A DNA stretch of 64,000 bases from Elusimicrobiota bacterium (GTDB lineage: Bacteria; Elusimicrobiota; Endomicrobiia; Endomicrobiales; JBDRNC01), in the NCBI GenBank assembly GCA_043811535.1, contig JBDRNC010000020.1, positions 8,483 to 72,482 of the forward strand, read 5' to 3'. Under the pieces are notes generated by a model. That model was not told the DNA's origin. It did no database searches and saw only the letters and a list, made by a program, of their open reading frames with translations. This document shows positions 8,549 through 31,719 of this stretch, piece by piece. How positions within the stretch are numbered: the stretch's first letter is position 1; each line of letters starts with the position of its first letter. The position numbers were made by a program, and so were the translations under genes.

Positions 8549-8556
8549 TTAAGACA

Positions 8557-8628: not shown

Positions 8629-8657
8629 AAAAAACAATAACAGGATAGTCCTAAGAT

Positions 8658-9212: not shown

Positions 9213-9275
9213 GCCTGAAGCAAGTCCTTTGCGAAGCAGAAGGACTCAGAAAACTATCACTCTACCCAAGATATA

Positions 9276-9354
9276 GCCATTAGCAATTTGCTATTGGCAA
9301 TTAGTGAAAAACAATTAGAAGTTTACTAATAGCTAATGGCTAATTACTAATAGC
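9276..9354. repeat. heptad-word inverted repeat (ATTAGCA/ATTGGCA arms vs CTAATAG/CTAATGG arms)
   Basis: GCCATTAGCAATTTGCTATTGGCAATTAGT - GAAAAACAATTAGAAGTTT - ACTAATAGCTAATGGCTAATTACTAATAGC. Confidence 0.75.
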
Positions 9355-9376
9355 TGAAAACTGGAGGTTTTAACAA

Positions 9377-10552: not shown

Positions 10553-10590
10553 AATTACGATTACAAATTACAAATTTCAGATTACAAATT
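10553..10590. repeat. heptad array AATTACG/ATTACAA
   Basis: AATTACG ATTACAA ATTACAA ATTTCAG ATTACAA ATT. Confidence 0.8.
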
Positions 10591-10696
10591 CTTTCGCACG
10601 CGATGACGGGCAAAAGGTAGGCGGCACCTTCGGCGCCGCGATTGAGATACGAAAACGGGCTCCCTTGCCAAACTCGTATCAGAATTGAAAAGACGT

Positions 10697-10729
10697 CATT
10701 GCGAGTCCGCCGCGGCGGACGAAGCAATC
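10697..10729 (+). other. GC-rich hairpin in the guaA leader
   Basis: CATTGCGA-GTCCGCCGCGGCGGAC-GAAGCAATC. The inner part is the perfect 14-bp palindrome TCCGCCGCGGCGGA, and the outer ATTGC/GCAAT segments can pair. Confidence 0.6.
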
Positions 10730-10768
10730 TCAGGTATCGCTCAGTGAAGATGTATTGTCTTGGCTGTA

Positions 10769-10800
10769 ACGAAATACGAACTACGAAATACGGAATACGG
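10769..10800. repeat. heptad array AAATACG
   Basis: ACG AAATACG AACTACG AAATACG GAATACG G, just upstream of the guaA start. Confidence 0.8.
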
Positions 10801-12359: not shown

Positions 12360-12428
12360 GGGGACTTAAGTCCCCGAATGGCGAGACGAACAACCAAATT
12401 GTAGCCGGCACTTAAGTGCCGGGCTACC
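12360..12428. repeat. two CTTAAG-centred palindromic hairpins (copy 2 of the 6066 element plus a variant)
   Basis: GGGGACTTAAGTCCCC (12360-12375) and GTAGCCGGCACTTAAGTGCCGGGCTACC (12401-12428). Confidence 0.85.
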
Positions 12429-14160: not shown

Positions 14161-15051
14161 ATGAATGGCGCCCTGCAAAATGAAAAAATAGACCTGCCTT
14201 TGCTTCACCGCGGGAAGGTACGCGACGTTTACGGCATGGGACAGCAGCTGCTCATCGTTGCGAGCGACCGCATATCCGCCTTTGATTTCGTGCTTCCTAC
14301 GATGATACCGGACAAGGGAAAGGTTCTTCACCAGCTTTCCATGTTCTGGTTTGACCTCATCCAGAGCATAGTTCCCAATCATCTGATAACGGGTGATTTT
14401 GAACAGTTCCCGACAAAATTAAAGCAGTACCCGTACCTTAAACAGCGGACAATGCTTGTTAAAAAAACCAAAAGAGTGGATGTTGAGTGCATAGTCCGCG
14501 GGTACCTGTCGGGTTCGGGCTGGAAAGAGTATAATAAATCAGGGGCCATTTGCGGCATCAAACTGCCGAACGGAATGAGGGAATCATCTAAGTTCTCCGA
14601 GCCGATATTCACCCCGACAAGCAAAGAAGAGGGCGGAAAGCACGACGAGAACATTACTTTCGAAGAGATGTCGGACAGGATAGGAAAGGACATCGCCGCG
14701 AAAATAAGGGACGCGTCGGTCGCGGTATATAAGAAAGCGTCGGGATACGCGGAAACAAGGGGAATAATTATTGCAGATACCAAGTTCGAGTTCGGGATGC
14801 TTGATGACAAACTTATACTCATAGACGAGATCCTGACGCCGGATTCATCGCGGTTCTGGGAAAAGAGCAAGTACGAAGAAGGCCGGCCCCAGGATAGTTT
14901 AGACAAGCAGTATGTCAGGGACTTTCTTGAATCGATCAAATGGGATAAGCAGCCCCCGGTCCCGGGCCTTCCGGAAGATGTCGTTGCCAAAACGCGCGAG
15001 AAATATGTCGACGCGCATAAGAAGATAACGGGGAAAGATTTACTGATATAA
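14161..15051 (+). CDS. purC: SAICAR synthase
   Basis: 296 aa with GKVRDVY, ASDRISAFD and IIADTKFEFG. Confidence 0.95.
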   Translation: MNGALQNEKIDLPLLHRGKVRDVYGMGQQLLIVASDRISAFDFVLPTMIPDKGKVLHQLSMFWFDLIQSIVPNHLITGDFEQFPTKLKQYPYLKQRTMLVKKTKRVDVECIVRGYLSGSGWKEYNKSGAICGIKLPNGMRESSKFSEPIFTPTSKEEGGKHDENITFEEMSDRIGKDIAAKIRDASVAVYKKASGYAETRGIIIADTKFEFGMLDDKLILIDEILTPDSSRFWEKSKYEEGRPQDSLDKQYVRDFLESIKWDKQPPVPGLPEDVVAKTREKYVDAHKKITGKDLLI

Positions 15052-15124
15052 TTACAAATTACAGATTACACATTGAAAGACTCAAGGGCAGTTAATTTGT
15101 AATTTGGAATTTGTAATCTGTAAT
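15051..15124 (+). mobile_element. ~75-nt MITE-like element, family A copy 1 (ATTACAN heptad arms + conserved core)
   Basis: ATTACAAATTACAGATTACAC-ATTGAAAGACTCAAGGGCAGTTAAT-TTGTAATTTGGAATTTGTAATCTGTAAT. The core recurs at 18204, 26099 (reverse) and 51145. Confidence 0.7.
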
Positions 15125-15136
15125 AAGGTTAAATAT

Positions 15137-15607
15137 ATGATCTATCAAATCGAAGCCGTAAACAAGAAGGGGCATCCCGACCAGCACGGAAAGCATATCC
15201 TGCAGGATATCAGGGAGTCCGGGATAAAAGGCGTCAATAAAGTCGCCTATTCGCAGGTCTATCAGATAGAGGGACACTTGAATCTGAGAGAAGTGGATTT
15301 GATTGCCCGCGAACTGCTCATAGACTCGGTTACGCAGACCTATTCGCTGTGCAATCCGATGAACCCCAGGCACAGCGGCGTTACCGGCGGGCACGAGATA
15401 GAGATTTGGTACAGGCACGGCGTGACCGATACCGTCGCCGAAAGCGTGATAAAAGCGGTTCAGGACCTTGGAATGAGCAGGCACATAAAGGTAAGGACCG
15501 GGCAGAAATATCTTTTTGAGACCTCGCTGTCAAAGGGCGCGATTGAGCAGGTAGTCAAGAGATTGATAGTCAACACGCTCATACAGGAATATAAGAAAAT
15601 AAAGTAA
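15137..15607 (+). CDS. purS: FGAM synthase PurS subunit, tandem (double-length) form
   Basis: 156 aa made of two PurS-like halves (canonical PurS is about 80 aa). Position is between purC and purL. I moved the start to ATG 15137. Confidence 0.65.
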   Translation: MIYQIEAVNKKGHPDQHGKHILQDIRESGIKGVNKVAYSQVYQIEGHLNLREVDLIARELLIDSVTQTYSLCNPMNPRHSGVTGGHEIEIWYRHGVTDTVAESVIKAVQDLGMSRHIKVRTGQKYLFETSLSKGAIEQVVKRLIVNTLIQEYKKIK

Positions 15608-15721
15608 ACGCAGATTAGCGCAGATATATTCACGGATTATCGCAGAAACAGAGACGCAAATTATCGCAGACAAAGGCGTATCTGCGGAAATCAGCGGTTA
15701 AAAAATCAGTTTAATCTGCGC
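15608..15721. repeat. word-repeat spacer with inverted ends (CGCAGAT/ATCGCAGA words)
   Basis: ACGCAGATTAGCGCAGAT...ATTATCGCAGAAAC...ATTATCGCAGAC...ATCTGCGG...TAATCTGCGC. The termini ACGCAGATTA / TAATCTGCGC are complementary. Confidence 0.7.
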
Positions 15722-15731
15722 TTAAAAGAAT

Positions 15732-18170
15732 ATGAGACCTGTAAACATAAAAAACGTTGAGATTATCGGGTTGCCGGATGAAAAACTCATTGCTTTGAGT
15801 AAGGATAACGTGCTGTCCCTGTCCCTGCTTGAGATGAAAATCATTCAGAAATATTTCAAGGGACAGGGCCGCAACCCCACGGACGCCGAGCTTGAGACGA
15901 TAGCCCAGACGTGGAGCGAACACTGCAAGCATAAAACACTGACAGGTGTCATAAAATATACAGAGACTGAAGACGGAAGACTGAAGACGGAAGAATACCA
16001 AAACCTTCTCAAAGAGACGATATTCAAGGCGACGAAGGAACTTAAGAAAAAATGGTGCATATCGGTTTTTGAAGACAATGCAGGCGTCATTGAATTCAAT
16101 AAGGATTACGGGATAGCATTCAAGGTAGAAACTCATAACCATCCCTCCGCGCTGGAGCCGTACGGAGGGGCCGCTACCGGCATAGGCGGCGTAATAAGGG
16201 ATATTCTAGGAGTCGGGCTCGGTGCCAAACCCGTTGCCAACACGGATGTTTTCTGTTTCGGGCCGCCGGAACTTGAGTGGGATGACCTGCCTGACGGGAT
16301 GCTGCATCCGAAACGCATCGCGAAGGGCGTGGTATCCGGAGTGCGCGATTACGGCAACAGGATGGGCATACCCACAGTAAACGGCGCCGTGTATTTTGAC
16401 GAAGGATATATTTCAAATCCCCTTGTGTATTGCGGCACGCTCGGGATGATACCGACGGGCATGGCGTTTAAAAAAGTTAAACCCGGCGACCTTGTGCTTG
16501 TCGCAGGCGGACGGACCGGCAGGGATGGAATTCACGGCGCGACATTTTCGTCCACAAAACTTCACAAACATACAGATGCAACCGCGGTGCAGATAGGCAA
16601 CCCGATAGTTGAAAAGAAAGTGCTGGACACGCTGCTTAAGGCGCGCGATATGGGACTTTATCGCGCGGTTACCGATTGCGGCGCAGGAGGTCTTTCAAGC
16701 GCTGTCGGCGAACTTGGGGCTAAGTGCGGCGTGACGGTAAATCTTGAAAAAGTGCCGCTGAAGTACGCGGGACTCGCGCCTTGGGAGATATGGCTCTCGG
16801 AAGCGCAGGAGCGGATGGTTTTCGCGGTTCCAAAGGAACACCGGGACGCCATTATGCAGGTTTTTGAATCAGAAGGAGTGGAAGCGACTTTTATCGGCGA
16901 GTTCACAAAAGACAAGAAATTGATTGTTCTGTATAAGGAAGACCTTGTGGTCGTGCTGGATATGCAATTCCTGCATGATGGCGTGCCCAGGCCCACGCAT
17001 GCGGCTTCATGGGAAGTGAAGAGCCGGACGGCGGCTAAGTTGCCGAAGTCAAAGGATCTCGGTGTTGATCTCAAGCACTTGCTTTCAAGTCTTAATATTT
17101 GCTCGCGCGAATGGATAATAAGGCAGTATGACCATGAAGTCCAGGGGCAGACGGTAATAAAACCGCTTCAGGGCAGGCAGTCGGGACCCGGCGACGCGGC
17201 AGTGATATGGCCGTATACATTCACAAAAGACGGAAGTAGGAAGAAGGAAGCGGGAAGAAAAGGCAACGACAAAGAAACATATAAAGGCATTGTGCTTTCA
17301 AACGGGTTGAATCCGGAGTACGGCAAAATAGACCCTTACTGGATGGCGGCGTCGGCTATCGATGAAGCCCTGCGCAACGCGGTCGCCGTAGGCGCGGATA
17401 TAGAAAGAACAGCGCTTCTGGATAATTTCTGCTGGGGAAGCCCGGATAAACCGGAAGTTTTAGGCGGGCTTGTGCGCGCTTCAACTGCATGCTATGAGTT
17501 CTCAAAAGCGTTTGAGACTCCGTTTATATCGGGCAAGGACAGCCTGCATAACGAGTACATAGTTGACGATAAGGCGTATTCCATTCCTCCGGCCCTGCTT
17601 ATTTCCGCCGTGGGTATCATAACGGATATAAGAAAAGCCGTCAGGATGGATTTTAAGCACGACGGCAGCCTGATCTACGTCATCGGCGCCACGAAGAATG
17701 AACTCGGCGGGTCGCAGTACCTGAAATTGAAAAAAACCGATGGAGGAGAACTGCCTAAAGTCGACGCGAAAATATCAAGAAAGGCCATGATATCGCTCGG
17801 GAAAGCCATGCAAAAAGGGCTCGTTGCGGCATGCCATGATTGTTCCGAAGGCGGGCTGGGCGTGGCGATAGCAGAGATGTGTTTTGCCGGCGGCAAAGGC
17901 GCGACGGTAGAGCTCTCCGCGGTCACGGCGGATACCGCGATGAGCGACGCGGAAATTCTTTTCTCGGAATCTAACAGCAGGTTTATAGTTGAGGTTGGAG
18001 CCAGAAACAGGAGCGAATTTGAAAAACTAATGAAAGGCGTCGCTTTTGCAAAGATCGGGGTGGTTGAAGAGAAACCGGCGCTGATAATTAACGGGCAAGA
18101 AGGGAAAACAATAATTTCGGAAAAGACGGATGATTTGCAGGAAGCGTGGAGAAAGACTTTAAATTGGTAA
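15732..18170 (+). CDS. purL: FGAM synthase II (small-type PurL)
   Basis: 812 aa with WSEHCKHK, ETHNHPSA and DCGAGGL motifs. Confidence 0.95.
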   Translation: MRPVNIKNVEIIGLPDEKLIALSKDNVLSLSLLEMKIIQKYFKGQGRNPTDAELETIAQTWSEHCKHKTLTGVIKYTETEDGRLKTEEYQNLLKETIFKATKELKKKWCISVFEDNAGVIEFNKDYGIAFKVETHNHPSALEPYGGAATGIGGVIRDILGVGLGAKPVANTDVFCFGPPELEWDDLPDGMLHPKRIAKGVVSGVRDYGNRMGIPTVNGAVYFDEGYISNPLVYCGTLGMIPTGMAFKKVKPGDLVLVAGGRTGRDGIHGATFSSTKLHKHTDATAVQIGNPIVEKKVLDTLLKARDMGLYRAVTDCGAGGLSSAVGELGAKCGVTVNLEKVPLKYAGLAPWEIWLSEAQERMVFAVPKEHRDAIMQVFESEGVEATFIGEFTKDKKLIVLYKEDLVVVLDMQFLHDGVPRPTHAASWEVKSRTAAKLPKSKDLGVDLKHLLSSLNICSREWIIRQYDHEVQGQTVIKPLQGRQSGPGDAAVIWPYTFTKDGSRKKEAGRKGNDKETYKGIVLSNGLNPEYGKIDPYWMAASAIDEALRNAVAVGADIERTALLDNFCWGSPDKPEVLGGLVRASTACYEFSKAFETPFISGKDSLHNEYIVDDKAYSIPPALLISAVGIITDIRKAVRMDFKHDGSLIYVIGATKNELGGSQYLKLKKTDGGELPKVDAKISRKAMISLGKAMQKGLVAACHDCSEGGLGVAIAEMCFAGGKGATVELSAVTADTAMSDAEILFSESNSRFIVEVGARNRSEFEKLMKGVAFAKIGVVEEKPALIINGQEGKTIISEKTDDLQEAWRKTLNW

Positions 18171-18174
18171 AGGA

Positions 18175-18247
18175 AATTACAAATTACAGATTACATATTA
18201 CAGATTGAAAACTTTTAAGCAGTTAATTTGGAATTTGTAACCTATAA
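18175..18247 (+). mobile_element. MITE-like element, family A copy 2
   Basis: AAATTACAAATTACAGATTACATATTACAG-ATTGAAAACTTTTAAGCAGTTAAT-TTGGAATTTGTAACCTATAAT. Confidence 0.7.
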
Positions 18248-18255
18248 TCAAATAT

Positions 18256-19077
18256 ATGAACAATAAACCTAAAGCGATCATCCTGAGAACAGCAGGGACG
18301 AACTGTGATATAGAAACACAGGCGGCTTTTGAGCTTGCCGGCGCACACGCTGAAAGGATTCACATTAACAGGCTTATAAAGAAGGAAGTGAAACTTTCCG
18401 ATTACCAGATACTTGCGATACCTGGCGGGTTTTCTTACGGAGATGACATTGCGTCCGGGAAAATACTGGCAAACGAGATAAGGAACAAGCTGGGAGCCGA
18501 CCTGAAAGAGTTCGCCGATAACGGGAAGCCAGTGATTGGCATATGCAACGGGTTTCAGGTCCTTGTGAAAATAGGCCTGCTCCCGGATGAGAAGGAATTT
18601 AAGCAGAAAACAACATTGAGTCATAACAATTCGGACAAATTTGAATGCAGGTGGGTGTATTTAAAGCAGGGTCAAGGTGCAAGGGTCAAGGAAGCGGGAA
18701 AGAATAACTGCATATGGACAAAACAGCTTCCGGATATCATTGAAATGCCGGTGGCTCACGGGGAAGGCAAGTTCACGGCAATAGACGAAAAAACCCTTCG
18801 CCTTATTGAAAAGAATTGCCAGGTTGTTTTCAGATATTGCGACGATAAAGGGAAGTCCGCGAATTATCCCTGCAATCCGAACGGTTCCGTAAACGATATC
18901 GCGGGAATATGCAATCCAAAAGGCAATATACTCGGGATGATGCCTCATCCGGAACGGTTCATCTACAAATGGCAGCATCCCGGACGTTCCAGCCAGGAAA
19001 AGAACAGCGAATATGGATGGGGCTTGAAACTCTTCCAGAACGCCGTCAAATACATTACGGAAAATCTCTACGTTTGA
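18256..19077 (+). CDS. purQ: FGAM synthase I (glutaminase subunit)
   Basis: 273 aa class-I GATase with GICNGFQ and MPHPER. Confidence 0.9.
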   Translation: MNNKPKAIILRTAGTNCDIETQAAFELAGAHAERIHINRLIKKEVKLSDYQILAIPGGFSYGDDIASGKILANEIRNKLGADLKEFADNGKPVIGICNGFQVLVKIGLLPDEKEFKQKTTLSHNNSDKFECRWVYLKQGQGARVKEAGKNNCIWTKQLPDIIEMPVAHGEGKFTAIDEKTLRLIEKNCQVVFRYCDDKGKSANYPCNPNGSVNDIAGICNPKGNILGMMPHPERFIYKWQHPGRSSQEKNSEYGWGLKLFQNAVKYITENLYV

Positions 19078-19117
19078 TGCCCTGTAATTCAACAGACGCC
19101 CGGATAGAAGGATAATT

Positions 19118-20473
19118 ATGTGCGGTGTGTTCGGAGTATTCAACCAGCCTGAGGCCGCGAAACTAGCTTACCTAGGCCTATACTCGCTGCAGCACAGGGG
19201 CCAGGAAAGCGCCGGAATAGCTTCTTCCAACGGTGAAAAAATACATTCAATAATCAAGATGGGGCAGGTTGCCGATGTCTTTGACCAACCCAGCCTGGAA
19301 TCGCTTAAAGGGAATGCCGCAATAGGCCATGTCAGGTACTCGACCACCGGCGTTAGCCAGTTGAAGAATGCCCAGCCGCTTGTCATTAACTATAAAAAAG
19401 GCCAGTTAGCGCTAGCGCACAACGGAAATCTCATAAACGCGGGACATTTGCGCGCGAAACTTGAATCAGATGGTTCAATTTTCCAGACAACCTCGGACAG
19501 CGAGGTCATACTGCATTTAATAGCGCGCGCGAACGGGCGCCCCATTGAAAAAGCCCTGGAATACGCCTTGTCTAAAGTAAGAGGCGCATATTCACTGGTG
19601 ATGATGTCAGAGACGCAGCTTATTGCGGCGCGCGACCCGTGGGGGGTCAGGCCGCTCGTGCTCGGAAAAATCAAGAAAGGCTGGGTGGTCGCTTCAGAAA
19701 CCTGCGCTCTTGACCTGATAGGAGCGGAATATATCCGCGAGATAGAACCCGGGGAAATGGTCGTAATAGACAAAAAAGGCGCCAGGCCGGTCAAATTCGC
19801 CGAAAAAAAACGCGACGCGGCGATGTGCATATTTGAATATATATATTTTTCGCGTCCTGACAGCATTATTTTCGGAAAGAGCGTGCACGCGGTAAGGCAG
19901 CAGCTGGGCAAGCACCTCGCGCTGGAAAGCATGCCGAAAATAAAAGACGCGGACCTGGTTTTTTCGGTTCCGGATTCCGCGAACAGCGCGGCTATCGGGT
20001 TCAGCAGGGCATCCGGCGTTCCGTTTGAGACCGGGCTCATAAGGAACCATTATGTAGGAAGGACCTTCATCGAGCCTAGCCAGCATATCAGAGATTTCGG
20101 CGCGAAAATAAAATATAATCCCGTGCGTGATATCCTAAAAGGCAAGGACGTGGTGGTGGTCGATGATTCAATTGTCAGGGGAACGACGAGTCGCAAACTG
20201 GTGAAGATGATCCGTTCGGCGGGAGTCAGGAAAATACACATGGTTGTCAGTTCGCCGCCGATAATAGCTTCGTGTTTTTACGGAATCGACACGCCCACTA
20301 AAAAGGAACTCATCGCATCCAACTACTCGGTGGAAGGGATAAGGAAGTTTATCGGCGCGGACACGCTGAATTACCTGAGCGTGGAGGGCATGATCGCCGC
20401 GACCGGAGCGGCGGGATTCAAGTTCTGCACGGCATGTTTTACGGATAAGTATAAAATAACAGACAAGTGCTAA
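19118..20473 (+). CDS. purF: amidophosphoribosyltransferase
   Basis: MCGVFG N-terminal nucleophile, PRTase motif [13 protein letters not shown] and C-terminal Cys residues. Confidence 0.95.
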
Positions 20474-20536
20474 ATGGCTTAATGGCTGAATTGCTGAAAG
20501 GCTTAAAGCCATTTAACCATTTAACAATTTAGCAAT
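20471..20536. repeat. octad-word hairpin, family B copy 1 (AATGGCT / AGCCATT arms)
   Basis: TAAATGGCTTAATGGCTGAATTGCTGAAAGGCTT-A-AAGCCATTTAACCATTTAACAATTTAGCAAT. It starts on the purF stop codon. Confidence 0.75.
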
Positions 20537-20554
20537 CAAGCAGGTAAAGTTATT

Positions 20555-21838
20555 ATGAAGATATTAGTAATCGGTTCTGGTGGTCGCGAGCACGCGCTTG
20601 TCTGGAAGATCAAGCAGAGCAAGCTTGTGAAAAAGATTTATTGCGCGCCCGGCAACGCGGGGATGGCGCGGGACGCCGAGTGCGTGGCTCTAAAAACGGA
20701 TGATTTCGGCGCGATAGCCGATTTTGTCAATAATAACGGAATAAAAATGACCGTAGTAGGGCCTGAAGCGCCGCTCGCTTCCGGGATAGTTGATTATTTC
20801 CGCGCGCAAAAACTGGAAGTATTCGGGCCTGATAAAAAGGCCGCGCAGTTCGAGGCCAGTAAAGTATTTGCCAAGGATTTTATGCGGAAATACGGCATTC
20901 CCACGGCCTTATACAAAAATTTCACTGATTTAAGCGTCGCGATGGATACAGTCAATAAGTGGCCCGCGGGGATGAAGATGGTCATCAAAGCGGACGGCCT
21001 TGCCGCGGGCAAGGGCGTGATAATCTGCGAAGACGGAAAAACGGCCGAAGACGCGCTCAGGCAGATAATGCAGGAAAAAGTATTCGGGAACGCCGGCTCA
21101 AGAGTCGTCATAGAGGAGTATCTTGAAGGGGAAGAAGCCTCAGTGCAGGTTTTTACGGACGGGAAAAGTTATTCGCTGATGATTCCCGCGCAGGACCACA
21201 AGCGGGTTAACGATAACGACGCAGGGCCTAACACAGGCGGCATGGGTGCCTATGCGCCTGCCCCCGTCGCGGACAAAAAACTCCTTGAAAAAGTTGAGCA
21301 AAGGATACTGAAACCTTTCATGAACGGCATCAAGCAGGAAGGAATAGATTACAAAGGTGTTCTTTACATTGGATTGATGATAAATAAGGGCGAGCCTTAC
21401 GTCCTTGAGTTTAACTGCAGGTTCGGCGATCCTGAAACCCAGGTGGTGCTCCCGCTTCTCAAGACTGATCTTGTTGAAATAATACGGAAAATCTGCTCAG
21501 GAGCATTAGACAAAATAAAAATAGAATGGTATAATAATACAGCTGTATGCGTTGTTTTAGCTTCCGGGGGCTACCCGGGCGAATACAAAAAAGGCTTGGA
21601 AATCAAAGGGTTAAGTGAAGCTGCGTCCTTGAAAAACGTAACGGTATTCCACGCGGGAACCTCGGCGTCGGAAACAAAGACCGTGACTTCCGGCGGCAGG
21701 GTGCTCGGGGTCACGGGAACTGGCGGCGGGATAAAGGAAGCCATAGCCAAAGCGTACGAAGCGGTGAATAAGGTCAGTTTTGACGGCATGCACTTCCGTC
21801 GCGACATCGGCAAAAAAGCGCTCAACAAATTGAGTTGA
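20555..21838 (+). CDS. purD: phosphoribosylamine-glycine ligase
   Basis: 427 aa with MKILVIGSGGREHAL and an ATP-grasp fold. Confidence 0.95.
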   Translation: MKILVIGSGGREHALVWKIKQSKLVKKIYCAPGNAGMARDAECVALKTDDFGAIADFVNNNGIKMTVVGPEAPLASGIVDYFRAQKLEVFGPDKKAAQFEASKVFAKDFMRKYGIPTALYKNFTDLSVAMDTVNKWPAGMKMVIKADGLAAGKGVIICEDGKTAEDALRQIMQEKVFGNAGSRVVIEEYLEGEEASVQVFTDGKSYSLMIPAQDHKRVNDNDAGPNTGGMGAYAPAPVADKKLLEKVEQRILKPFMNGIKQEGIDYKGVLYIGLMINKGEPYVLEFNCRFGDPETQVVLPLLKTDLVEIIRKICSGALDKIKIEWYNNTAVCVVLASGGYPGEYKKGLEIKGLSEAASLKNVTVFHAGTSASETKTVTSGGRVLGVTGTGGGIKEAIAKAYEAVNKVSFDGMHFRRDIGKKALNKLS

Positions 21839-21881
21839 TTTTCAACTGGCTCAGAGTACATATAAAGGTGGTAAGTGCAGG

Positions 21882-22418
21882 ATGGCTAAAAACAAGATGC
21901 AAGTCGCGATAATAACAGGTTCAGATTCGGATCTCCCCGTAATATCCTCTTCTGCAAAGATTTTGGAAGAATTCGGCATATCTTATAAGATCACAGTAGC
22001 ATCCGCGCACAGAACCCCGAAAAAAGTAAAGAATTACGTAAAAAGCTCCGAAAGAAACGGCGCGGAGGTTTTCATCGCCGCGGCAGGCATGGCCGCAGCG
22101 CTCCCCGGCGTTGTGGCTTCGGAAACGACATTGCCGGTTATCGGCGTGCCGCTTGAGAGCAAGGGTCTCGCAGGGATTGACGCGCTTTTCTCGATAGTTC
22201 AGATGCCGCCCGGCATACCTGTGGGCACTGTAGCGATAGGGAAAGCGGGCGCAACGAACGCCGGGATTTTCGCGGTGCAGATACTTGCGCTGAAATACCC
22301 GAAACTCAAGGCAAAACTGGCAATATACCGCAGGAATATGGCGAAAACAATAGAAAACAAGGACATCCGTCTTCAAAAAATGGGAATAAAGAGATATATA
22401 GAAAAACTGCAGAATTAA
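21882..22418 (+). CDS. purE: PurE (N5-CAIR mutase / AIR carboxylase family)
   Basis: GSDSDLPV and SAHRTP motifs. No purK is present in the window. Confidence 0.9.
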   Translation: MAKNKMQVAIITGSDSDLPVISSSAKILEEFGISYKITVASAHRTPKKVKNYVKSSERNGAEVFIAAAGMAAALPGVVASETTLPVIGVPLESKGLAGIDALFSIVQMPPGIPVGTVAIGKAGATNAGIFAVQILALKYPKLKAKLAIYRRNMAKTIENKDIRLQKMGIKRYIEKLQN

Positions 22419-22457
22419 TCTGTATAATCTATCAAAGGAATCTGTGTAATCTTCGTT

Positions 22458-23021
22458 ATGGAATATCAAGAAAAGAAAGACATCCTCAATAAAGAAGAGC
22501 TTGGTCAGACGATAAAGCGTCTTGCGCTGGAAATCGTGGAAAAGAATTTCGGTGTGAAGGATCTTGCCATCGTCGGAATACAGACCAGAGGCGTGACGCT
22601 GGCTAAAAGGATTCTGGACGAGATACTGGGTTCCGCAAAAAATGATGAAGAAAAAGATATTCCTTTCGGCACGCTCGGGATAACGCTTTACAGGGACGAT
22701 GTAAGCACAATGGAGGCCCCGCCCGAAGTCAAGGATACGGACATCTCGTTCGATCTCACGGGTAAAAAGATAATACTGATTGACGATGTCATATGCACGG
22801 GCAGGACGATACGCGCGGCGCTGGACGAACTCATGGATTACGGCAGGCCGCAGTCTATACAGCTGGCGGTCGTTGTGGACCGCGGGCACAGGGAACTCCC
22901 GATAGAGCCGAATTTCGTCGGGAAAAAATTCCAGACATCAAAGGAAGAACTCATAGAAGTCGAACTTGAAGAAGTAGACGGCAGGGAAAGAGTTGTATTG
23001 AAAGAAAAAAGAAGTTCTTAG
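22458..23021 (+). CDS. pyrR: bifunctional pyrimidine operon regulator / uracil phosphoribosyltransferase PyrR
   Basis: 187 aa with ITLYRDD, LIDDVICTGRT and VVDRGHRELPI. Confidence 0.9.
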   Translation: MEYQEKKDILNKEELGQTIKRLALEIVEKNFGVKDLAIVGIQTRGVTLAKRILDEILGSAKNDEEKDIPFGTLGITLYRDDVSTMEAPPEVKDTDISFDLTGKKIILIDDVICTGRTIRAALDELMDYGRPQSIQLAVVVDRGHRELPIEPNFVGKKFQTSKEELIEVELEEVDGRERVVLKEKRSS

Positions 23022-23052
23022 TTCGTAGTTCATAGTTCGTGGAAAACGAACT
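23019..23052. repeat. heptad array TAGTTCG ending in a small hairpin
   Basis: TAGTTCG TAGTTCA TAGTTCG TGG, followed by AGTTCGT-GGAAA-ACGAACT. Confidence 0.8.
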
Positions 23053-23070
23053 TAAAACAAAGGACTAATA

Positions 23071-24024
23071 ATGCAACTGCAAAGCAAGGACTTGCTCGGA
23101 ATTGAGTATCTTGACAAAAAAGAGATCGAGCTGATAGTGGACGCGGCCCGGCCTTTTAAAAATCTTTTCACGCGCTCCATTAAAAAAGTCCCGACTCTCC
23201 GCGGCAAGACCGTAGTTAACCTCTTTTACGAACCCTCTACACGAACAAGAACCTCATTTGAGATCGCAGCGAAACGCTTATCGGCTGATGTCGTCAGCAT
23301 AGCCACTTCATCTTCCAGCGTGGTCAAAGGCGAAAGTCTGATAGACACCGGAAAGACCATGGAAGCTATGAAGGCGGATTTCATAGTGATACGCCACAAC
23401 ATGGCGGGGGCTCCCGCGGTGCTGGCAAGGAACCTGCACGCCGCGGTCATAAACGCCGGCGACGGCTTTCACGAACACCCGACGCAGGGACTGCTTGACC
23501 TGTACACTATCAAGGATAAAAAGAAGAAGATTGCGGGATTGAAAGTGCTGCTTGTAGGAGATATCCTGCACAGCCGGGTGGCAAAATCAAATATCTGGGG
23601 GCTTATAAAACTCGGCGCGGAAGTAAGGGTTTCCGGGCCTCCGACGCTGATACCTCCCAAGGTTGAAAACCTCGGCGTGAAAGTCTACTACGACCTTGAC
23701 GAGGCGCTGAAAGGCGTGGACGTGGTCAATATCCTGCGCATACAGCTTGAGCGCCAGCAGGAAAACCTGTTCCCTTCCGTGCATGAATACATTGAACTTT
23801 ATCAGATGACAAAGAATCGGCTTGCGGCCGCCAAACCGGATGTGATGGTGATGCACCCGGGTCCCATGAACCGCGGAATAGAAATATCGTCGGAAGTGGC
23901 CGACAGCCCATCGGCCGTGATAAACGAGCAGGTTACGAACGGCATCGTGGTGAGGATGGCCGTGCTTTACCTGCTTTCGGGAAAAGCCAGCGGAAAAACA
24001 AAACAGATAACCAAGGAAATTTAA
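23071..24024 (+). CDS. pyrB: aspartate carbamoyltransferase catalytic subunit
   Basis: STRTR, HEHPTQ and HPGP motifs. Confidence 0.95.
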
Positions 24025-25323
24025 ATGCCGAAACTTCTGATCAAGAACGGACGTGTGATAGATCCCGCGTCAAAGATTGACGGGGTGATGGATGTCCTCA
24101 TCTCCGACGGGAAAGTGGTTGAGGTAAAACAAAAGATATCAGAGAACGACTGCAAGGTGATAGACGCGTCCAAAAAGGCGGTCGTGCCGGGAATGATAGA
24201 TGTGCACACCCATTTGCGCGAGCCGGGCCACGAAGAAGAAGAAACGATAGCGACCGGGACGCGCGCCGCGGCGAAAGGCGGCGTCACGAGCATACTTTGC
24301 ATGCCGAACACGCACCCTCCGCTGGACAACGCGCCGGCAGTGGAGTTCGTGCTGCTGAAAGCGCAGAAGGAAGGACTTGTAAACGTGTATCCTATAGGGT
24401 GCATAACCAAGAACTCAGACGGAGAAGAGCTCGCGGAGATAGGCGTGCTTAAAAAAGCGGGAGTGATCGCGATATCCGATGACGGAAATCCGGTGATGAA
24501 CGCGCAGGTCATGCGCAGGGCCCTGGAGTACACTAAAATGTTCAACCTGCCGGTAATATCACACTGCGAGGACCTGAACCTCTCGAAGAACGGGGTTATT
24601 CACGAGGGGCACATGTCAATGGTTTTGGGGCTGCGCGGGATACCCAGTCAGAGCGAAGAAGTCATGATAAGTCGGGATATTATGCTGGCGGATCTCACGG
24701 GAGGCCACCTGCATATAGCCCATGTATCAACGGCCGGAGCCGTTGACCTTATCAGGGAAGCGAAGAAAAAGAAAATAAACGTTACGGCGGAGACTTGTCC
24801 GCATTACTTCTCACTGACCGACGAGGCGGTGAAGGGCTATAACACAAACACAAAAATGAAGCCGCCCCTGAGAACCGAGGAAGACGTAAAGGCCATCAAG
24901 CAGGGGCTTGCCGACGGAACGATTGACTGTATAGCGACAGACCACGCGCCGCATACGATAGAGGAAAAGAACAAGGAATACGACCTGGCGCCGTTCGGGA
25001 TAATCGGGCTCGAAACTCTGCTCGGGCTTGTCATTACAGAACTTGTGGACAAGAAAGTCCTTCCGCTGGCCGAAGCGCTGGCCAAGATGACTGTCAATCC
25101 GGCCGGGATATTCGGCCTTTCAGGCAAGGGCGCGCTGAAGCCCGGGAATGACGCCGACATAACAATAATAGACTTGGATAAGGAATATAATATAAAAGAG
25201 AGCGAATTCATGTCGAAGAGCAAGAACTCGCCCTTCATCGGCTGGAAATTGAAAGGATTTGCCGAGATCACAATAGTCGGAGGTAAGGTGGTTTGGCCAT
25301 TAAACGAAAAAACCAAATCGTAA
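24025..25323 (+). CDS. pyrC: dihydroorotase
   Basis: 432 aa amidohydrolase with DVHTHLREPG and ATDHAPH. The start abuts the pyrB stop (TAAATG). Confidence 0.95.
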   Translation: MPKLLIKNGRVIDPASKIDGVMDVLISDGKVVEVKQKISENDCKVIDASKKAVVPGMIDVHTHLREPGHEEEETIATGTRAAAKGGVTSILCMPNTHPPLDNAPAVEFVLLKAQKEGLVNVYPIGCITKNSDGEELAEIGVLKKAGVIAISDDGNPVMNAQVMRRALEYTKMFNLPVISHCEDLNLSKNGVIHEGHMSMVLGLRGIPSQSEEVMISRDIMLADLTGGHLHIAHVSTAGAVDLIREAKKKKINVTAETCPHYFSLTDEAVKGYNTNTKMKPPLRTEEDVKAIKQGLADGTIDCIATDHAPHTIEEKNKEYDLAPFGIIGLETLLGLVITELVDKKVLPLAEALAKMTVNPAGIFGLSGKGALKPGNDADITIIDLDKEYNIKESEFMSKSKNSPFIGWKLKGFAEITIVGGKVVWPLNEKTKS

Positions 25324-26069
25324 GAATACGGGAAAACAAGGCAATCGCCCCGGGCTATTATAAGATTTCGTTGATCTCACCTTTCTTAGCCCGGGTTTCT
25401 TGTCCCGGGCAGTTCTGCCTGCTCAATGTTCCGGGAGTGTTTTTAAAGAGGCCGCTTAGCGTCTATTCCGCGGGCGGAGCAAAGGTTGCGTTTCTTTATA
25501 AGGTTGTCGGCCCCGGGACGGAAAACCTATCAAAACTGAAACCCGGCCGGGAGATCGAAGTACTCGGACCTCTCGGAACCGGCTACAATGTCAAAACGCT
25601 CAACGGGAAAAGGCCGGTTTTAGTAGCCGGCGGAACGGGGATCGCGTCGCTCAATTTTCTTGCCGAGAAACTTAAGGTAAAGGGTATTCTTTTCTGCGGG
25701 GCTAAAACGAAAAAAGAACTTGCAGGGCTTGAGAAATTCAGGAAATCAGGCTGGAAAATAGAGATAGCCACTGACGACGGGACGCAGGGATTCAAAGGGT
25801 TTGTTACCGGTCTTTTAAAGGCATACTTGTCAGCTCCCGAAAGGAGAAATGAGAAAGGTGAGATACTTTACTGCTGCGGGCCCCGAGGGATGCTTAAAGA
25901 GTGCAAAAGTATTGCGGAAAAGCATGAAATAGAAGCTTGCGCGTCTATGGAAGAGATGGTGGCGTGCGGGACGGGCAGCTGTCAGGGCTGCGTAGTAAAG
26001 ATAAAAGGGGAATATAAAAGAGTTTGCGCTGACGGCCCGGTTTTCAGGCTTCAAGATATTGAAGCCTGA
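25293..26069 (+). CDS. pyrK: dihydroorotate dehydrogenase B electron-transfer subunit
   Basis: FAD/NAD-binding fold plus a C-terminal 2Fe-2S Cys cluster (CGTGSCQGC...C). TTG start follows GGAGG and overlaps pyrC by 31 nt. Confidence 0.85.
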   Translation: MAIKRKNQIVRIRENKAIAPGYYKISLISPFLARVSCPGQFCLLNVPGVFLKRPLSVYSAGGAKVAFLYKVVGPGTENLSKLKPGREIEVLGPLGTGYNVKTLNGKRPVLVAGGTGIASLNFLAEKLKVKGILFCGAKTKKELAGLEKFRKSGWKIEIATDDGTQGFKGFVTGLLKAYLSAPERRNEKGEILYCCGPRGMLKECKSIAEKHEIEACASMEEMVACGTGSCQGCVVKIKGEYKRVCADGPVFRLQDIEA

Positions 26070-26144
26070 AATTGCAGATTTCAAATTGCAGATTACAAAT
26101 TAACTGCCTTCCAGTTTTTCAATCTGAAATCTGAAATTTGAAAT
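26069..26144 (-). mobile_element. MITE-like element, family A copy 3 (inverted orientation)
   Basis: The reverse complement reads ATTTCAAATTTCAGATTTCAG-ATTGAAAAACTGGAAGGCAGTTAAT-TTGTAATCTGCAATTTGAAATCTGCAATTT. Confidence 0.7.
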
Positions 26145-27122: not shown

Positions 27123-27800
27123 ATGAAAAAATTAATCGTAGCGTTGGACATGCAGGATAAGAACAAGGCCCTGGCTATGGTGGACAAGATATCGCCGTGG
27201 GTTGACATGTTCAAGATAGGGCCGATACTTTTCCTTCAAAATGGGCCCGAACTCCTGCGCATGATAAAATTGAGGAGAAAGGAAGTATTTCTTGACCTGA
27301 AATTCTACGATATACCGGCTACTGTCAAACGGGCCGTTGAATCAGCGTGCGAAATGGGAGTGTATTCACTGACGCTTCACTCATCGGGCGGGGAAGAGAT
27401 GCTGAAAGCGGCCGCGCAAGTCAGCCAGAGGCCGAAACTATGGGCAGTCACGATACTAACAAGCCAGCATGCCAGCGTGGAAGATGTCGTTGAACGGGCG
27501 AAACTGGCAAAATCCTGCGGCCTTGACGGCGTGATAGCTTCGCCGCTTGAGATAAAGGCGATTAAAGAGGCGTGCGGAGCAGACTTTACCGTTGTAACTC
27601 CCGGCATTCGCACTGACGGGGCGAAAGATGATCAGAAGAGAACGGCAACTCCTGTTGAAGCCGTAACTGCGGGAGCGGATTTTATCGTGGTAGGCAGGCC
27701 GGTGATAGAGGCGAAGGACCCGATAGCCGCCGCGAGAAAAATATTGGAAGAAATAGAAGTGAAACAAGAAGGAAGAAGGAAGATAGAAGAAGGAAGATAG
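27123..27800 (+). CDS. pyrF: orotidine 5'-phosphate decarboxylase
   Basis: ALDM...DLKFYDIP...GRP motifs. The C-terminal tail EVKQEGRRKIEEGR is encoded by a GGAAGAN repeat. Confidence 0.9.
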   Translation: MKKLIVALDMQDKNKALAMVDKISPWVDMFKIGPILFLQNGPELLRMIKLRRKEVFLDLKFYDIPATVKRAVESACEMGVYSLTLHSSGGEEMLKAAAQVSQRPKLWAVTILTSQHASVEDVVERAKLAKSCGLDGVIASPLEIKAIKEACGADFTVVTPGIRTDGAKDDQKRTATPVEAVTAGADFIVVGRPVIEAKDPIAAARKILEEIEVKQEGRRKIEEGR

Positions 27801-27835
27801 GTTTACTTCAATCTTCCGTCTTCCATCTTCGGTCC
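27768..27835. repeat. GGAAGAN heptad array plus its imperfect complement (hairpin across the pyrF stop)
   Basis: GAAGAAGGAAGA (left arm) pairs with TCTTCCGTCTTC (right arm) at 11/12 positions. The stop codon TAG lies at the top of the stem. Confidence 0.75.
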
Positions 27836-27858
27836 GTGATACAAAGAAAGGCGAAAAA

Positions 27859-28434
27859 GTGAAACCCGAACAGATAAAACAGTTGTTTGAACAGCATAAA
27901 GCCTTGTTAAGCGGGCACTTCTTATTATCCAGCGGGCTGCATTCCGACACCTATTTCCAGTCGGCGCTGATACTCCAGCATCCTAACGAGGCGGAAAAGC
28001 TCGCTTCTGCGCTTGCCGGTAAGATATTAAAAGATATCCCCGAAATTGACGTCGTGGTTTCTCCAGCTATGGGCGGCATAATCATCGGTCAGGAAGTAGC
28101 GGCTCAGATAGGCTGCCGGGCGATATTTACGGAGCGGGTTGAAAACAAGATGACGTTTCGCAGAGGATTTCAGATAGAAAAGGATGAAAAATGCCTGGTA
28201 GTGGAGGATGTCGTAACTACCGGTCTGTCCACGCGCGAAGTTGTAGAGGTAATAAAAACGCTTGGCGGCAGTGTTGTCGCTGTCGCGTCGCTTGTGGACA
28301 GGAGCGGAGGCAAGGCCGATCTGGGCGCTCCGCTGTTTTCGCTGCTCGCCCTGGAAGTCAAAAGCTATAAGGCAGAAGAATGTCCGATGTGCAAAGAGGG
28401 AAGCCAGCCAATAAAACCCGGAAGCAGAAAATAA
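27859..28434 (+). CDS. pyrE: orotate phosphoribosyltransferase
   Basis: 191 aa with PRTase motif LVVEDVVTTGLS and a GTG start. Confidence 0.9.
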   Translation: MKPEQIKQLFEQHKALLSGHFLLSSGLHSDTYFQSALILQHPNEAEKLASALAGKILKDIPEIDVVVSPAMGGIIIGQEVAAQIGCRAIFTERVENKMTFRRGFQIEKDEKCLVVEDVVTTGLSTREVVEVIKTLGGSVVAVASLVDRSGGKADLGAPLFSLLALEVKSYKAEECPMCKEGSQPIKPGSRK

Positions 28435-28508
28435 TTGCTAAATTGCCAAATTGCTAAATGGCTGAAAAGCTTTTAACCATTTAGCCATAAAGCCATTTAA
28501 CCATTAAC
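28433..28508. repeat. octad-word hairpin, family B copy 2
   Basis: AATTGCTAAATTGCCAAATTGCTAAATGGCTGAAAAGC-TTTTAACCATTTAGCCATAAAGCCATTTAACCATTAAC. Confidence 0.75.
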
Positions 28509-28522: not shown

Positions 28523-29485
28523 ATGATAACTTATAAGAAATCTGGCGTAAACATTGACGCGGGAAACGAGCTGGTAAGGCGTATCAAAAGACGCCTGCCG
28601 AAGATAGGCGGTTTCGGGGGCGTATTTCCGCTTTCAGGAACGAAATATAACCTTGTCAGTTCCACGGACGGCGTCGGAACCAAACTTAAGCTGGCATTCA
28701 TACTCAACAAGCACGATACCGTAGGGATAGACCTTGTCGCGATGAGTGTAAACGATATTATCTGCTGCGGGGCGAAACCGTTATTTTTCCTGGATTACTT
28801 CGCGTGCGGAAAACTGAACGTTAATACCGCCGAGAAGGTCGTTTCAGGCATAGCGAAAGGCTGCAAACTCGCCGGCTGCGCGCTCATCGGCGGGGAAACG
28901 GCCGAGATGCCGGGTTTCTATCCTCCCGGCGAATACGACCTGGCAGGCTTCGCGGTAGGCGCGCTTGAAAAGGGGAAAGAAATAACCGGGAAAAGGATAC
29001 GGCCCGGCGACGTTGTTATCGGACTTCCGTCATCCGGACCCCACTCCAACGGCTATTCGCTCATAAGAAAAGTGCTGTCAAATAAGGAGATAAGAAAATA
29101 CCGGAAAGAACTGCTCGCTCCCACAAGGATCTATGTTAAGGAAATCTTAAAGTTGTTGTCAACCGTCAACCGTCAACTGTCAACTGTCGTTCACGGTATT
29201 GCCCATATTACGGGCGGAAGCTTTTATGACAAGATTGAAAGGATTCTCCCGGAAAAATGCAGGGTAATCATTAAAAAGAATTCATGGAAAGTTCCCGAGA
29301 TATTCAGACTCATTCAGAAGAAAGGCAAGATGAAAGATAAGGAAATCTACCGCACCCTGAACATGGGGATAGGTATGGTTCTTGTGGTCGGAGAGAAAGA
29401 GAGCAGGAGAATAAGAGAAAAGATCAAAGGCGCTAAGATAATAGGATATGTGGCAAAAGGAACAAGAGGAGTAGACGTCGTATAA
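28523..29485 (+). CDS. purM: AIR synthetase
   Basis: 320 aa with STDGVGTK, DYFA and AHITGGSF motifs. It contains an in-frame heptad-repeat insertion (next feature). Confidence 0.95.
   Translation: MITYKKSGVNIDAGNELVRRIKRRLPKIGGFGGVFPLSGTKYNLVSSTDGVGTKLKLAFILNKHDTVGIDLVAMSVNDIICCGAKPLFFLDYFACGKLNVNTAEKVVSGIAKGCKLAGCALIGGETAEMPGFYPPGEYDLAGFAVGALEKGKEITGKRIRPGDVVIGLPSSGPHSNGYSLIRKVLSNKEIRKYRKELLAPTRIYVKEILKLLSTVNRQLSTVVHGIAHITGGSFYDKIERILPEKCRVIIKKNSWKVPEIFRLIQKKGKMKDKEIYRTLNMGIGMVLVVGEKESRRIREKIKGAKIIGYVAKGTRGVDVV
29158..29189 (+). repeat. GTCAACY heptad array inside the purM coding sequence
   Basis: GTCAACC GTCAACC GTCAACT GTCAACT GTCG encodes STVNRQLSTVV. The region between YVK and the HxxAHxTGG motif is about 6 aa longer than I recall for E. 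coli PurM. Confidence 0.8.
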
Positions 29486-29502: not shown

Positions 29503-29565
29503 TCCGACTTCGCATGCGACCACCTGCTATTTATTTAACCGAAGTCCCTCTTTCGGGGAGACTCC
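29503..29565 (-). repeat. 63-nt element E, left (inverted) copy
   Basis: The reverse complement is GGAGTCTCCCCGAAAGAGGGACTTCGGTTAAATAAATAGCAGGTGGTCGCATGCGAAGTCGGA, roughly 88-90% identical by eye to 31656-31719. Confidence 0.85.
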
Positions 29566-29666
29566 ATTGAAAATAATAATGAAGTCGCAAAATAAATTCA
29601 AATATATAAATCAAAAATTGTTTTAAGCTTTGATATTGTAGTTATATTTTGACATTTGAATTTAAT

Positions 29667-31561: not shown

Positions 31562-31655
31562 CGGCTTTTCCGGGAAGTTGGTGGAGCCCCTCCGAAAGCC
31601 CTCCTGGCGGGGCAAAAATTAAGCGACCTCCCGCGACCTCATTAACGTATTTAAC

Positions 31656-31719
31656 GGAGTCTCCCTAAAAAAGGGACTTCGGTTAAATAACATAGCAGAT
31701 GGTCGCATGCGCAGTCGGA
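31656..31719 (+). repeat. element E, right (direct) copy
   Basis: GGAGTCTCCCTAAAAAAGGGACTTCGGTTAAATAACATAGCAGATGGTCGCATGCGCAGTCGGA. Confidence 0.85.

Follow-up and report, generated by a model that had tools for sequence, protein, structure and literature searches.

In many bacteria no class of long simple sequence repeats (SSRs) is more abundant than the heptanucleotide repeats, which have been ascribed to polymerase slippage, an idea tied to the footprint of the polymerase (Mrazek et al. 2007, as related in PMC4692102 and PMC4679880). Each Xanthomonas genome carries 70-75 convergent pairs of GGGAATC arrays that are able to form stem-loops and whose positions are conserved between species while their length and sequence vary; heptameric SSRs are also described from Nostoc (PMC4692102) and, by the citation given in the same paper, short tandemly repeated repetitive (STRR) heptamers from Calothrix. 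In Beggiatoaceae, cyanobacteria and some Bacteroidetes, sets of two to six copies of TAACTGA lie at gene boundaries, where a role in translation has been proposed for them (MacGregor 2015, PMC4679880). REPINs, which are inverted doublets of REP (repetitive extragenic palindromic) sequences, form hairpins and are spread by REP-associated tyrosine transposases (RAYTs; PMC3116915). The subject of the present analysis is a 64-kb window of one metagenome-assembled genome from the phylum Elusimicrobiota (contig JBDRNC010000020.1), in which three junctions between pur and pyr genes hold related hairpin elements of about 74 nt, labelled here c1 (purC-purS), c2 (purL-purQ) and c3 (pyrK-pyrD). All copy numbers refer to this window.

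The elements are heptanucleotide-repeat hairpins, a kind already known but poorly understood, now met in a new phylum; a search of the literature turned up no paper that describes repeats of this type from Elusimicrobia or Endomicrobia. With a probability that we put at roughly 0.55, c1-c3 are paralogous copies of a single imperfect palindrome that belongs to a lineage-wide class of "periodic-arm hairpins" in this Endomicrobiia-related clade, a class that exists at the DNA level, is non-autonomous, resembles both REPINs and heptanucleotide repeats, and is selfish or mutational in nature, not regulatory.

An earlier, sequence-only reading of this DNA had proposed three homologous elements of this size with a core between complementary heptad arms, and comparison of the copies confirms it. 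Read in heptads, c1 is ATTACAA ATTACAG ATTACAC ATTGAAA GACTCAA GGGCAGT TAATTTG TAATTTG GAATTTG TAATCTG TAAT, and the entire element keeps its 7-nt register. Its 5' arm comprises the first three of these units (15051-15071), its inner stem and tip are ATTGAAA-GACTCAAGG-GCAGTTAATTTG (15072-15099), and its 3' arm consists of TAATTTG-type heptads reaching 15124; at its left end c1 includes the final base of the purC stop codon, and its right end lies 12 nt ahead of the purS ATG (15137). The 5' arm of c2 has four heptads, one more than that of c1, its tip is 1 nt shorter, giving a core of ATTGAAA-ACTTTTAA-GCAGTTAATTTG (18204-18230), and its 3' arm is shorter and more degenerate; this copy begins 5 nt past the purL stop and ends 7 nt ahead of the purQ ATG (18256). 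The third copy is inverted with respect to transcription, with its core on the minus strand (26096-26123) and arms built of ATTTCAN / ATTGCAG variants, an A-to-T change being present in 3/3 of its 5' heptads; it starts immediately past the pyrK stop and ends 18 nt ahead of the pyrD ATG (26163). Overall, the distance from the preceding stop codon to a copy is 0-5 nt and that from a copy to the next ATG 7-18 nt, and the arms of all copies are 3-4 tandem heptads (ATTNCAN) inverted to each other.

The likeness of the copies exceeds that expected by chance for AT-rich sequence. The 12-mer GCAGTTAATTTG has exactly three matches in the window, at 15088 (+), 18219 (+) and 26096-26107 (-), and ATTGAAA-N6-16-GCAGTT matches four times, the fourth being at 51145, against 0.04 expected from shuffles. 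Aligned without a gap, c1 and the reverse complement of c3 are identical at 62 of 74 positions (84%), and among 1260 comparisons of spacer with spacer in the window the pairs c1/c3 and c1/c2 score highest. ATTGAAA (7/7) and GCAGTTAATTTG (12/12) are invariant in all three copies, 19/19 positions together, whereas the 9-nt tip between them matches at 3-5 of 9 positions; arm identity ranges from 64 to 86%, with the variation at heptad positions 4 and 7, and arm length differs by whole heptads. A covariance model built from c1, c2 and c3 shows that orientation is clear despite the palindromic build, since it scores c3 far higher on the minus than on the plus strand (Table 1). A 9-mer, GGGCAGTTA, is found both in c1 and at the 5' end of tRNA-Val, which in 64 kb is no more than chance would give.

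Every copy forms a single uninterrupted, imperfect hairpin, and its arms are inverted repeats of 24 nt with 88% complementarity, as the claim of mutually complementary arms had implied, and c1-c3 fold more stably than shuffled sequences whether taken as RNA or as single-stranded DNA (z -2.6 to -4.8). Tandem 7-nt units, 3-5 per side, make up the outer two-thirds of the stem, often with a mismatch at a variable heptad position; further in, ATTGA is paired to TTAAT and ACT(G) to (C)AGT as the inner stem, and the terminal loop of 5-7 nt is the variable, unique-sequence part. Since the invariant "core" is thus mostly inner stem and the tip is the most variable part, the notion that the core is conserved above the arms needs refinement: it stands for the inner-stem segments and falls for the loop tip, the least conserved part of all. 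Nor is it necessary to suppose, as had been suggested, that the core is bound by something, because its invariant parts are the two sides of the inner stem, and slippage should in any case make tandem arms change more quickly. There is no sense-strand bias in folding (about 10 versus 11, sense versus antisense, among 21 hairpins), nor are G-U-compatible mismatches enriched on the sense strand. The arms within one element evolve in concert, because each element uses its own unit variant on both sides: ATTACA in c1, ATTTCA/ATTGCA in c3, and ATTTAA in a relative, L025.

Insertion of c2 has a further consequence for the DNA around it, in that the element splits a Shine-Dalgarno-like AGGAA (18171-18175, just past the purL stop) from the purQ ATG (region 18249-18258) by about 80 nt. 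The base of the folded c2 hairpin would return AGGAA to about 7 nt from the purQ start, a possible split ribosome-binding site.

Nucleotide-metabolism genes, all on the same strand, fill the first 31.5 kb of the window in the order carB, nrdR, ribonucleotide reductase (RNR), dcd, guaB, guaA, a phoU-like gene, PHO4, purC-S-L-Q-F-D-E, a phosphoribosyltransferase, pyrB-C-K-D-F-E and purM-N-B. By comparison of the PurQ protein the closest relatives belong to the Endomicrobiales/Endomicrobiia, and protein look-ups yielded five of them with a syntenic operon and DNA (L024, L025, L072, L074 and L075, the last being Endomicrobium proavitum); two more were used as gene tables only. In L024, whose proteins are about 80% identical in amino acid sequence to those of the window over nine proteins, the junctions are compact: the genes overlap at purC-purS (by 4 nt) and at pyrK-pyrD (by 11 nt), and a spacer of 9 nt separates purL from purQ. 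The P0004 contig of another relative likewise has all three junctions empty, with overlaps as in L024. Alignment of the purL-purQ junction of L024, TGGTAAgagatatttATG, with TGGTAAaggaa[73 nt]caaatatATG of the window shows a clean insertion of about 73 nt into a spacer that measures 9-12 nt when empty. At purC-purS the genes of L074 and E. proavitum are adjacent or overlapping, with no spacer; purL-purQ is short (27 nt) in E. proavitum but not in L074, and pyrK-pyrD is short (2 nt) in L074 but not in E. proavitum. About half of the readable junctions of L074, L072 and L075 are short, and the rest hold spacers of 54-269 nt that are not of the c1-c3 family. The outgroups indicate that the ancestral junctions were compact.

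L025, about 79% identical in amino acid sequence to the window, has a hairpin spacer of 93-104 nt at each of these junctions, alike in architecture but built from other heptads (GGATTAA at purC-purS, ATTTAAA at purL-purQ and GTTCACA at pyrK-pyrD). The tip of its purL-purQ hairpin, AAGTAGTTAATTTT, is related to the tip in the window, AAGCAGTTAATTTG, and this hairpin is the best covariance-model match outside the window (31 bits, E=5e-4). Across window and relatives the model returned no further family member besides this weak match and generic heptad-hairpin matches, so that the search for additional copies leaves three clear ones, with the site at 51145 marginal. Filled and empty sites, which one would look for with a DNA-level element, do both occur among the relatives; these are about 80% identical in amino acid sequence or further away, and the difference is therefore not a strain-level polymorphism. 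The copies within the genome (84% identity) are far closer to each other than to the same junction in relatives, which argues for recent copying or gene conversion in this lineage.

Heptad arms are a window-wide habit and are not peculiar to the c1-c3 element. In the window Tandem Repeats Finder detects 30 arrays of period 7/14 that do not overlap, the arms of c1-c3 among them, where 30 dinucleotide shuffles yield about 1.2 on average; several period-8 arrays are also present. Array length is typically 4.3-4.7 units (about 30-33 nt) and at most 5.1 units, and most arrays fall in the roughly 8% of the window that is non-coding. Their unit vocabulary is limited and recurs (GCNATTA, ATTACAN, GAAGAAG/CTTCCAT, GTCAACN, AGACGGA, and 8-mers such as AATTGCTA); arm units are also met across genomes, CGCTANN in L025 and L074, GATTACRCAGAT in window and L025, and AATTGCT/AACCATT in window and L024. 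Many arrays pair in inverted orientation to give hairpins of 22-31 bp that are built like c1-c3, among which there are further families, one joining the hairpin at 8556 with that at 9282 and another the hairpins at 20468 and 28432. Other arrays lie in frame within tolerant coding segments, at about residues 137-147 of PurQ, residues 78-88 and 500-512 of PurL, the C-terminus of PyrF, and in PurM. At the same PurQ and PurL loop positions the 7-nt unit differs from genome to genome (AGGGTCA, AAACCCG, GGAAGWR, ATCTCAA and others), and E. proavitum has a short loop with no array at that PurQ/PurL position. Orthologous loops filled with genome-specific heptads imply a mutational process filtered by selection.

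Table 1. Coordinates of the c1-c3 copies, of the marginal core and of other periodic arrays and hairpins (window positions unless a relative is named).
Feature	Position	Strand	Remarks
Copy c1	15051-15124	+	purC-purS; RNA minimum free energy -20.9, z -4.8; covariance model 98 bits
Copy c2	18176-18248	+	purL-purQ; covariance model 72.5 bits
Copy c3	26070-26144	-	pyrK-pyrD; covariance model 98 bits on minus strand, 49 bits on plus strand
Possible diverged core relative	51145-51218	+	ATTGAAAG+TGTAAAG+ACT..GCAGTT, then GTCAACY heptad array 51184-51218
Solo arm-unit array	10560-10590	+	ATTACAA ATTACAA ATTTCAG ATTACAA; guaB-guaA spacer; no core, no inverted partner
Solo array	5022		
Solo array	10769		
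Solo array	23013		
Solo array	27066		
Inverted-pair hairpin (approximate)	8556-8638		
Inverted-pair hairpin (approximate)	9275-9360		
Inverted-pair hairpin (approximate)	15603-15718		
Inverted-pair hairpin (approximate)	20468-20534		
Inverted-pair hairpin (approximate)	27764-27836		
Inverted-pair hairpin (approximate)	28432-28506		
Inverted-pair hairpin (approximate)	54277-54383		
In-frame array (~30 nt)	18668-18691		purQ
In-frame array (~30 nt)	17227-17259		purL
In-frame array (~30 nt)	15964-15994		purL
In-frame array (~30 nt)	27766-27800		pyrF 3' end
In-frame array (~30 nt)	29158-29188		purM
In-frame array, L024	10414-10444		
In-frame array, L024	9054-9084		
In-frame array, L025	10410-10445		
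In-frame array, L025	8948-8977		
In-frame array, L074	10411-10440		
In-frame array, L074	8787-8818		
Array in likely signal peptide	38115-38144		ACTGTCA
Array in likely signal peptide	43245-43275		CTAGTCA
Array in likely signal peptide	50192-50221		CTTCCAT

Several of these arrays have features of their own. The arms of the family at 8556-8638 and 9275-9360 are GCNATTR / CTAATNG. Arms of 8-nt period (AATGGCTN / AATTGCTA) build the hairpins at purF-purD (20468-20534) and pyrE-purM (28432-28506), which are related to the purF-purD hairpin of L024 (12434-12502); the cultured E. proavitum also has 8-nt-periodic inverted pairs in spacers, at 1890-1961 and 5353-5448. The arrays in likely signal peptides lie 40-65 nt inside the starts of their open reading frames (ORFs) and appear to encode hydrophobic N-termini, and two of them are preceded by purine-rich GGAAGAG / GAAGACG spacer arrays, at 38062 and 50085. 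Next to the solo arm-unit array of the guaB-guaA spacer lies an apparently structured, G+C-rich leader of about 180 nt (10590-10770) ahead of guaA that has no Rfam match; two unrelated heptad arrays, ATTACAA at 10560 and ACGAAAT at 10769, bracket it.

The sequence at 51145, which had been put forward as a fourth partial core, is a possible diverged relative of the core and remains marginal. It fits the loose pattern, has a promoter-like site ahead of it and a GTCAACY array behind it, and carries an insertion of 7 nt, while a complementary 5' arm is missing. The promoter-like site, a strong one (51107-51135; 11/12 matches, extended -10), ends 10 nt before it, and the whole belongs to the tRNA-Asp (51307-51384) leader. 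This core is not matched by the covariance model, the only match nearby being on the minus strand over the adjoining array (51163-51213, E=8.9).

Among known systems the window's arrays stand close to those of Xanthomonas campestris and X. axonopodis and the heptamers of Nostoc, where tandem 7-nt arrays are likewise over-represented and mainly intergenic (PMC4692102). As in the Xanthomonas pairs, two nearby inverted arrays are common and stem-loop capable, with either strand transcribed, and position is kept among relatives while length and sequence change and the single or inverted type is preserved (PMC4692102). Xanthomonas, however, uses one G-rich, quadruplex-forming unit, whereas here one genome has AT-rich units of many kinds (ATTACAN, GCNATTA, GAAGAAG, GTCAACN and 8-nt units), the arrays reach no more than about 5 units, hairpin families have a specific tip and inner stem, and the phylum is Elusimicrobiota. 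With REPINs and REPs the elements have in common an extragenic, non-coding length of about 70-110 nt, two inverted arms around a spacer and a hairpin predicted in single-stranded DNA or mRNA (PMC3116915; PMC3733652), as well as several families per genome, solo arms and occurrence in both orientations. They differ in that their arms are tandem heptads and not single imperfect palindromes, and in that they lack a GTAG or CGTC head (PMC3733652): c1-c3 begin ATTACAA or ATTTCAA. Unlike REPINs, they are not accompanied by a RAYT (Y1 transposase) gene within the 64 kb examined here. The TAACTGA sets also consist of few heptamer copies by gene boundaries, with stop-containing units only in non-coding DNA or gene ends and with units common to distantly related co-occurring organisms (PMC4679880), but they use one dominant unit that is almost always direct, in contrast to the many units and common inverted pairs seen here. 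The flanking arrays of c1-c3 are inverted and pair, and their core is the tip of a hairpin, not an insertion in a direct array; in this they depart from the small dispersed repeats (SDR) reported from Nostoc punctiforme. Elhai and colleagues are said to have described SDR in 2008 as conserved stretches of 20-30 nt embedded in tandem heptamers, reportedly with secondary structure and signs of recent copying within the genome.

We prefer a DNA-level over a cis-regulatory reading because the copies occur in both orientations, because relatives with the same genes have empty sites, and because there is no sense-strand bias; solo and coding arrays of the same kind, and the lack of promoter, terminator or Rfam signatures, argue in the same direction. 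The point about orientation had already been made from the letters alone, against a strand-specific RNA signal, and it holds with c3 on the minus strand and c1 and c2 on the plus strand. Scans found no sigma-70-like promoter and no intrinsic terminator inside c1-c3, so that a start of purS and purQ transcription inside the element is unsupported; such a start is also at odds with the reversed c3. Rfam gave no match at gathering thresholds, only chance matches far below threshold, at E up to 5. A sigma-54-like GGCAG-N5-TTG, noticed by eye, is rejected, as c2 has no GG and c3 would fire antisense, and the core bears no evident likeness to PurR or PyrR boxes.

For c1-c3 as DNA-level copies, the following course of events may be envisaged. 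Short heptad arrays would arise and turn over via replication slippage in 7-nt register and homogenisation within arrays, and would survive where they are tolerated, in spacers, protein loops, signal peptides and C-terminal tails. Complementarity within inverted pairs could be upheld through hairpin-templated (template-switch) correction, through selection that favours the hairpin, or through the two together, and either would lead both arms of an element to show the same unit variant. Whole hairpins might occasionally be copied or converted to other junctions, giving rise to families that share tip and inner stem; candidate agents are a REPIN/RAYT-like single-strand hairpin mechanism and ectopic gene conversion. 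As by-products, the insertions would have separated cistrons that ancestrally overlapped or nearly abutted, and would have placed a hairpin of 22-30 bp in the polycistronic mRNA.

Several points weigh against this account. No copying event is observed, and the three (perhaps four) copies all lie inside one 64-kb window, in which there is no mobilising enzyme; the closest relative in the searched collections is only about 80% identical in amino acid sequence. In the tree, window, L024 and L025 form a trichotomy (53% versus 46% bootstrap), and a single gain with later divergence in situ is inseparable from several gains made independently or from a loss on the L024 side. That two lineages have hairpins at these junctions and that array length has a ceiling of about 5 units could both point to a selected function over neutrality, and slippage by itself leaves the origin of a same-unit inverted partner unexplained.

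The last consideration but one leads to an explanation that we regard as unlikely yet serious, namely that the elements are intercistronic RNA hairpins under selection, serving in a long operon as RNase III/E processing sites, as barriers to 3'-exonucleases, or in the uncoupling of translation. Every copy lies in a same-strand spacer right past a stop codon, and orientation would be irrelevant, because the stem alone is needed and stems of 22-31 bp fold well both ways round. Selection on RNA would also fit the upkeep of arm complementarity while unit sequence changes, the recurrence in L025 of the same architecture in other sequence at the same junctions, the ceiling on array length, and the prospect that the base of the c2 hairpin would rejoin the SD-like AGGAA with the purQ start. 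Against this, in several relatives the genes on either side of each of the three junctions simply overlap or abut, the sense strand has no excess of G-U-compatible mismatches, no Rfam family matches, and the solo and in-frame coding arrays are left unexplained.

A different emphasis on the tips yields a reading that we hold to be doubtful. A second tip, AAAGGCTTT..TTGTCGTTA, is common to the window (8582) and L074 (14200) at non-orthologous junctions and with entirely different arms. The tips might be recognition modules of an undescribed, lineage-specific process, DNA-based or RNA-templated, that constitutes an active "heptad-writing" machinery and not passive slippage. In such a process arms would be built and rebuilt in 7-nt steps to about 31-35 nt on each side, arrays of about 30 nt would be seeded into tolerant coding sequence, and tips would outlast rewritten arms. 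Besides the tip kept in window and L074, such a process would account for the related purL-purQ tips of window and L025, whose arm units change in concert, for the sharpness of the ceiling at about 5 units, and for the different heptad that each genome has in the orthologous PurQ and PurL loops. An arm-independent tip pattern can take, for example, the form AAAGGCTTTN{0,12}TGTCGTTA. L074 has the tip of the copy at 8556 (AAAGGCTTTTTGTCGTTA) again at 14170-14255, between purD and purE, where its arms are CGCTANN.

The sequence-only reading had called the family MITE-like, and this is right insofar as the family is real, acts at the DNA level and has filled and empty sites. That it consists of classical MITEs (miniature inverted-repeat transposable elements), deletion derivatives of a DNA transposon with terminal inverted repeats (TIRs) that a DDE transposase moves in trans with formation of target-site duplications, is harder still to credit, for all that the small size, the inverted ends, the two orientations and the mixture of filled and empty sites among relatives would suit it. 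Target-site duplications, which had been thought worth looking for, are present in the flanks of 0/3 copies, and comparison of c2 with the empty purL-purQ site of L024 shows none either. The ends of the element are inverted, yet the supposed TIRs are tandem heptads of variable unit number that run to the tip, unlike discrete transposase-type TIRs and like the arms of many non-homologous elements and the solo arrays, and copies differ in arm length by whole heptads. The 64-kb window contains no transposase, integrase or reverse transcriptase domain. Exact scans for ATTGAAA-N7-10-GCAGTTAATTTG in public collections gave 23 matches in genome_contigs (185,579 species genomes) and 46 in metagenome_contigs, none of them a copy: all are chance matches, because they are single, lie in unrelated taxa and have no heptad flanks. 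The window's own copies were not returned, and the source genome is therefore not in these collections.

It is very improbable that ATTGAAA...GCAGTTAATTTG is a DNA operator, the binding site of a nucleotide-metabolism regulator at internal pur/pyr junctions. Such a site would explain why the 19 positions stay invariant while the arms vary, orientation independence is typical of DNA sites, and the three clear copies are all in pur/pyr junctions; this co-location is uninformative, however, because the first 31 kb is wholly given to nucleotide metabolism. Relatives with the same genes have no such site at these junctions, the position is inside operon junctions and away from promoters, the invariant parts pair together as inner stem, and the exact motif has chance matches only in the species genomes scanned. 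Finally, a mere chance likeness of AT-rich low-complexity spacers counts as refuted, for although the elements are only 22-28% G+C, consist mostly of repeated heptads that inflate similarity, and contain an ATTGAAA that is frequent by itself (33 copies in the window), the 12-mer is present three times, the combined pattern is far above expectation, the gapless c1/c3 identity takes in the non-repetitive tip, and c1/c3 and c1/c2 lead all spacer comparisons.

Other repeats of the window stand apart from the heptad hairpins. A GTAG-headed perfect palindrome, GTAGCCGGCACTTAAGTGCCGG(G/T)CTAC, occurs at 6066-6092 and 12401-12427 of the window and at 1050-1076 of L025; it is conserved between the genomes although the sites are non-orthologous, lying in the window ahead of RNR and of phoU-like/PHO4 and in L025 ahead of a pstS-like gene, and the palindrome may be a REP-like or a regulatory hairpin. 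A dispersed repeat, TAACCGAAGTCCCTYTTTNGGGGAGACTCC..., at 29536-29588 and, as its reverse complement, at 31633-31685, brackets purN-purB in inverted orientation. Two tRNA genes are accompanied by duplications: at 31816-32036 a 97-nt unit with the 5' part of tRNA-Val is present in 2.3 copies just upstream of the intact tRNA-Val (32011-32084), and a segment of about 105 nt that starts with the 3' end of tRNA-Thr occurs twice (54436-54540 and, 176 nt downstream, 54612-54716), includes an AGTTGGA/AGACGGA heptad array, and is either att-site-like or a local duplication. Within a 369-nt spacer a c-di-GMP-I riboswitch (45526-45616; 54 bits, above gathering) precedes a perfect palindrome of 16 bp (45659-45693), and the genes that come downstream, at 45727-50084, are a series to which Pfam has no match. 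In L024 a restriction-modification pair (N6_N4_Mtase and RE_MjaI; 591-2691) stands between guaB and guaA and is absent from the window.

For annotation in this clade, spacers of the kind described here should not be called promoters, riboswitches or MITEs, ORF starts close to heptad spacers are easily over-extended, and low-complexity loops in otherwise conserved enzymes are repeat-derived. No long simple repeats are commoner in bacteria than heptanucleotide tandem repeats, whose origin still awaits an explanation. A conserved syntenic operon of 20 genes, whose junctions are empty or filled according to genome and are filled with differing heptads, is a compact comparative system, as are the orthologous protein loops with their genome-specific in-frame arrays. 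With more genomes or strains, this clade could answer how arrays originate, how the complementarity of arms is kept up, and whether tips are copied between sites.

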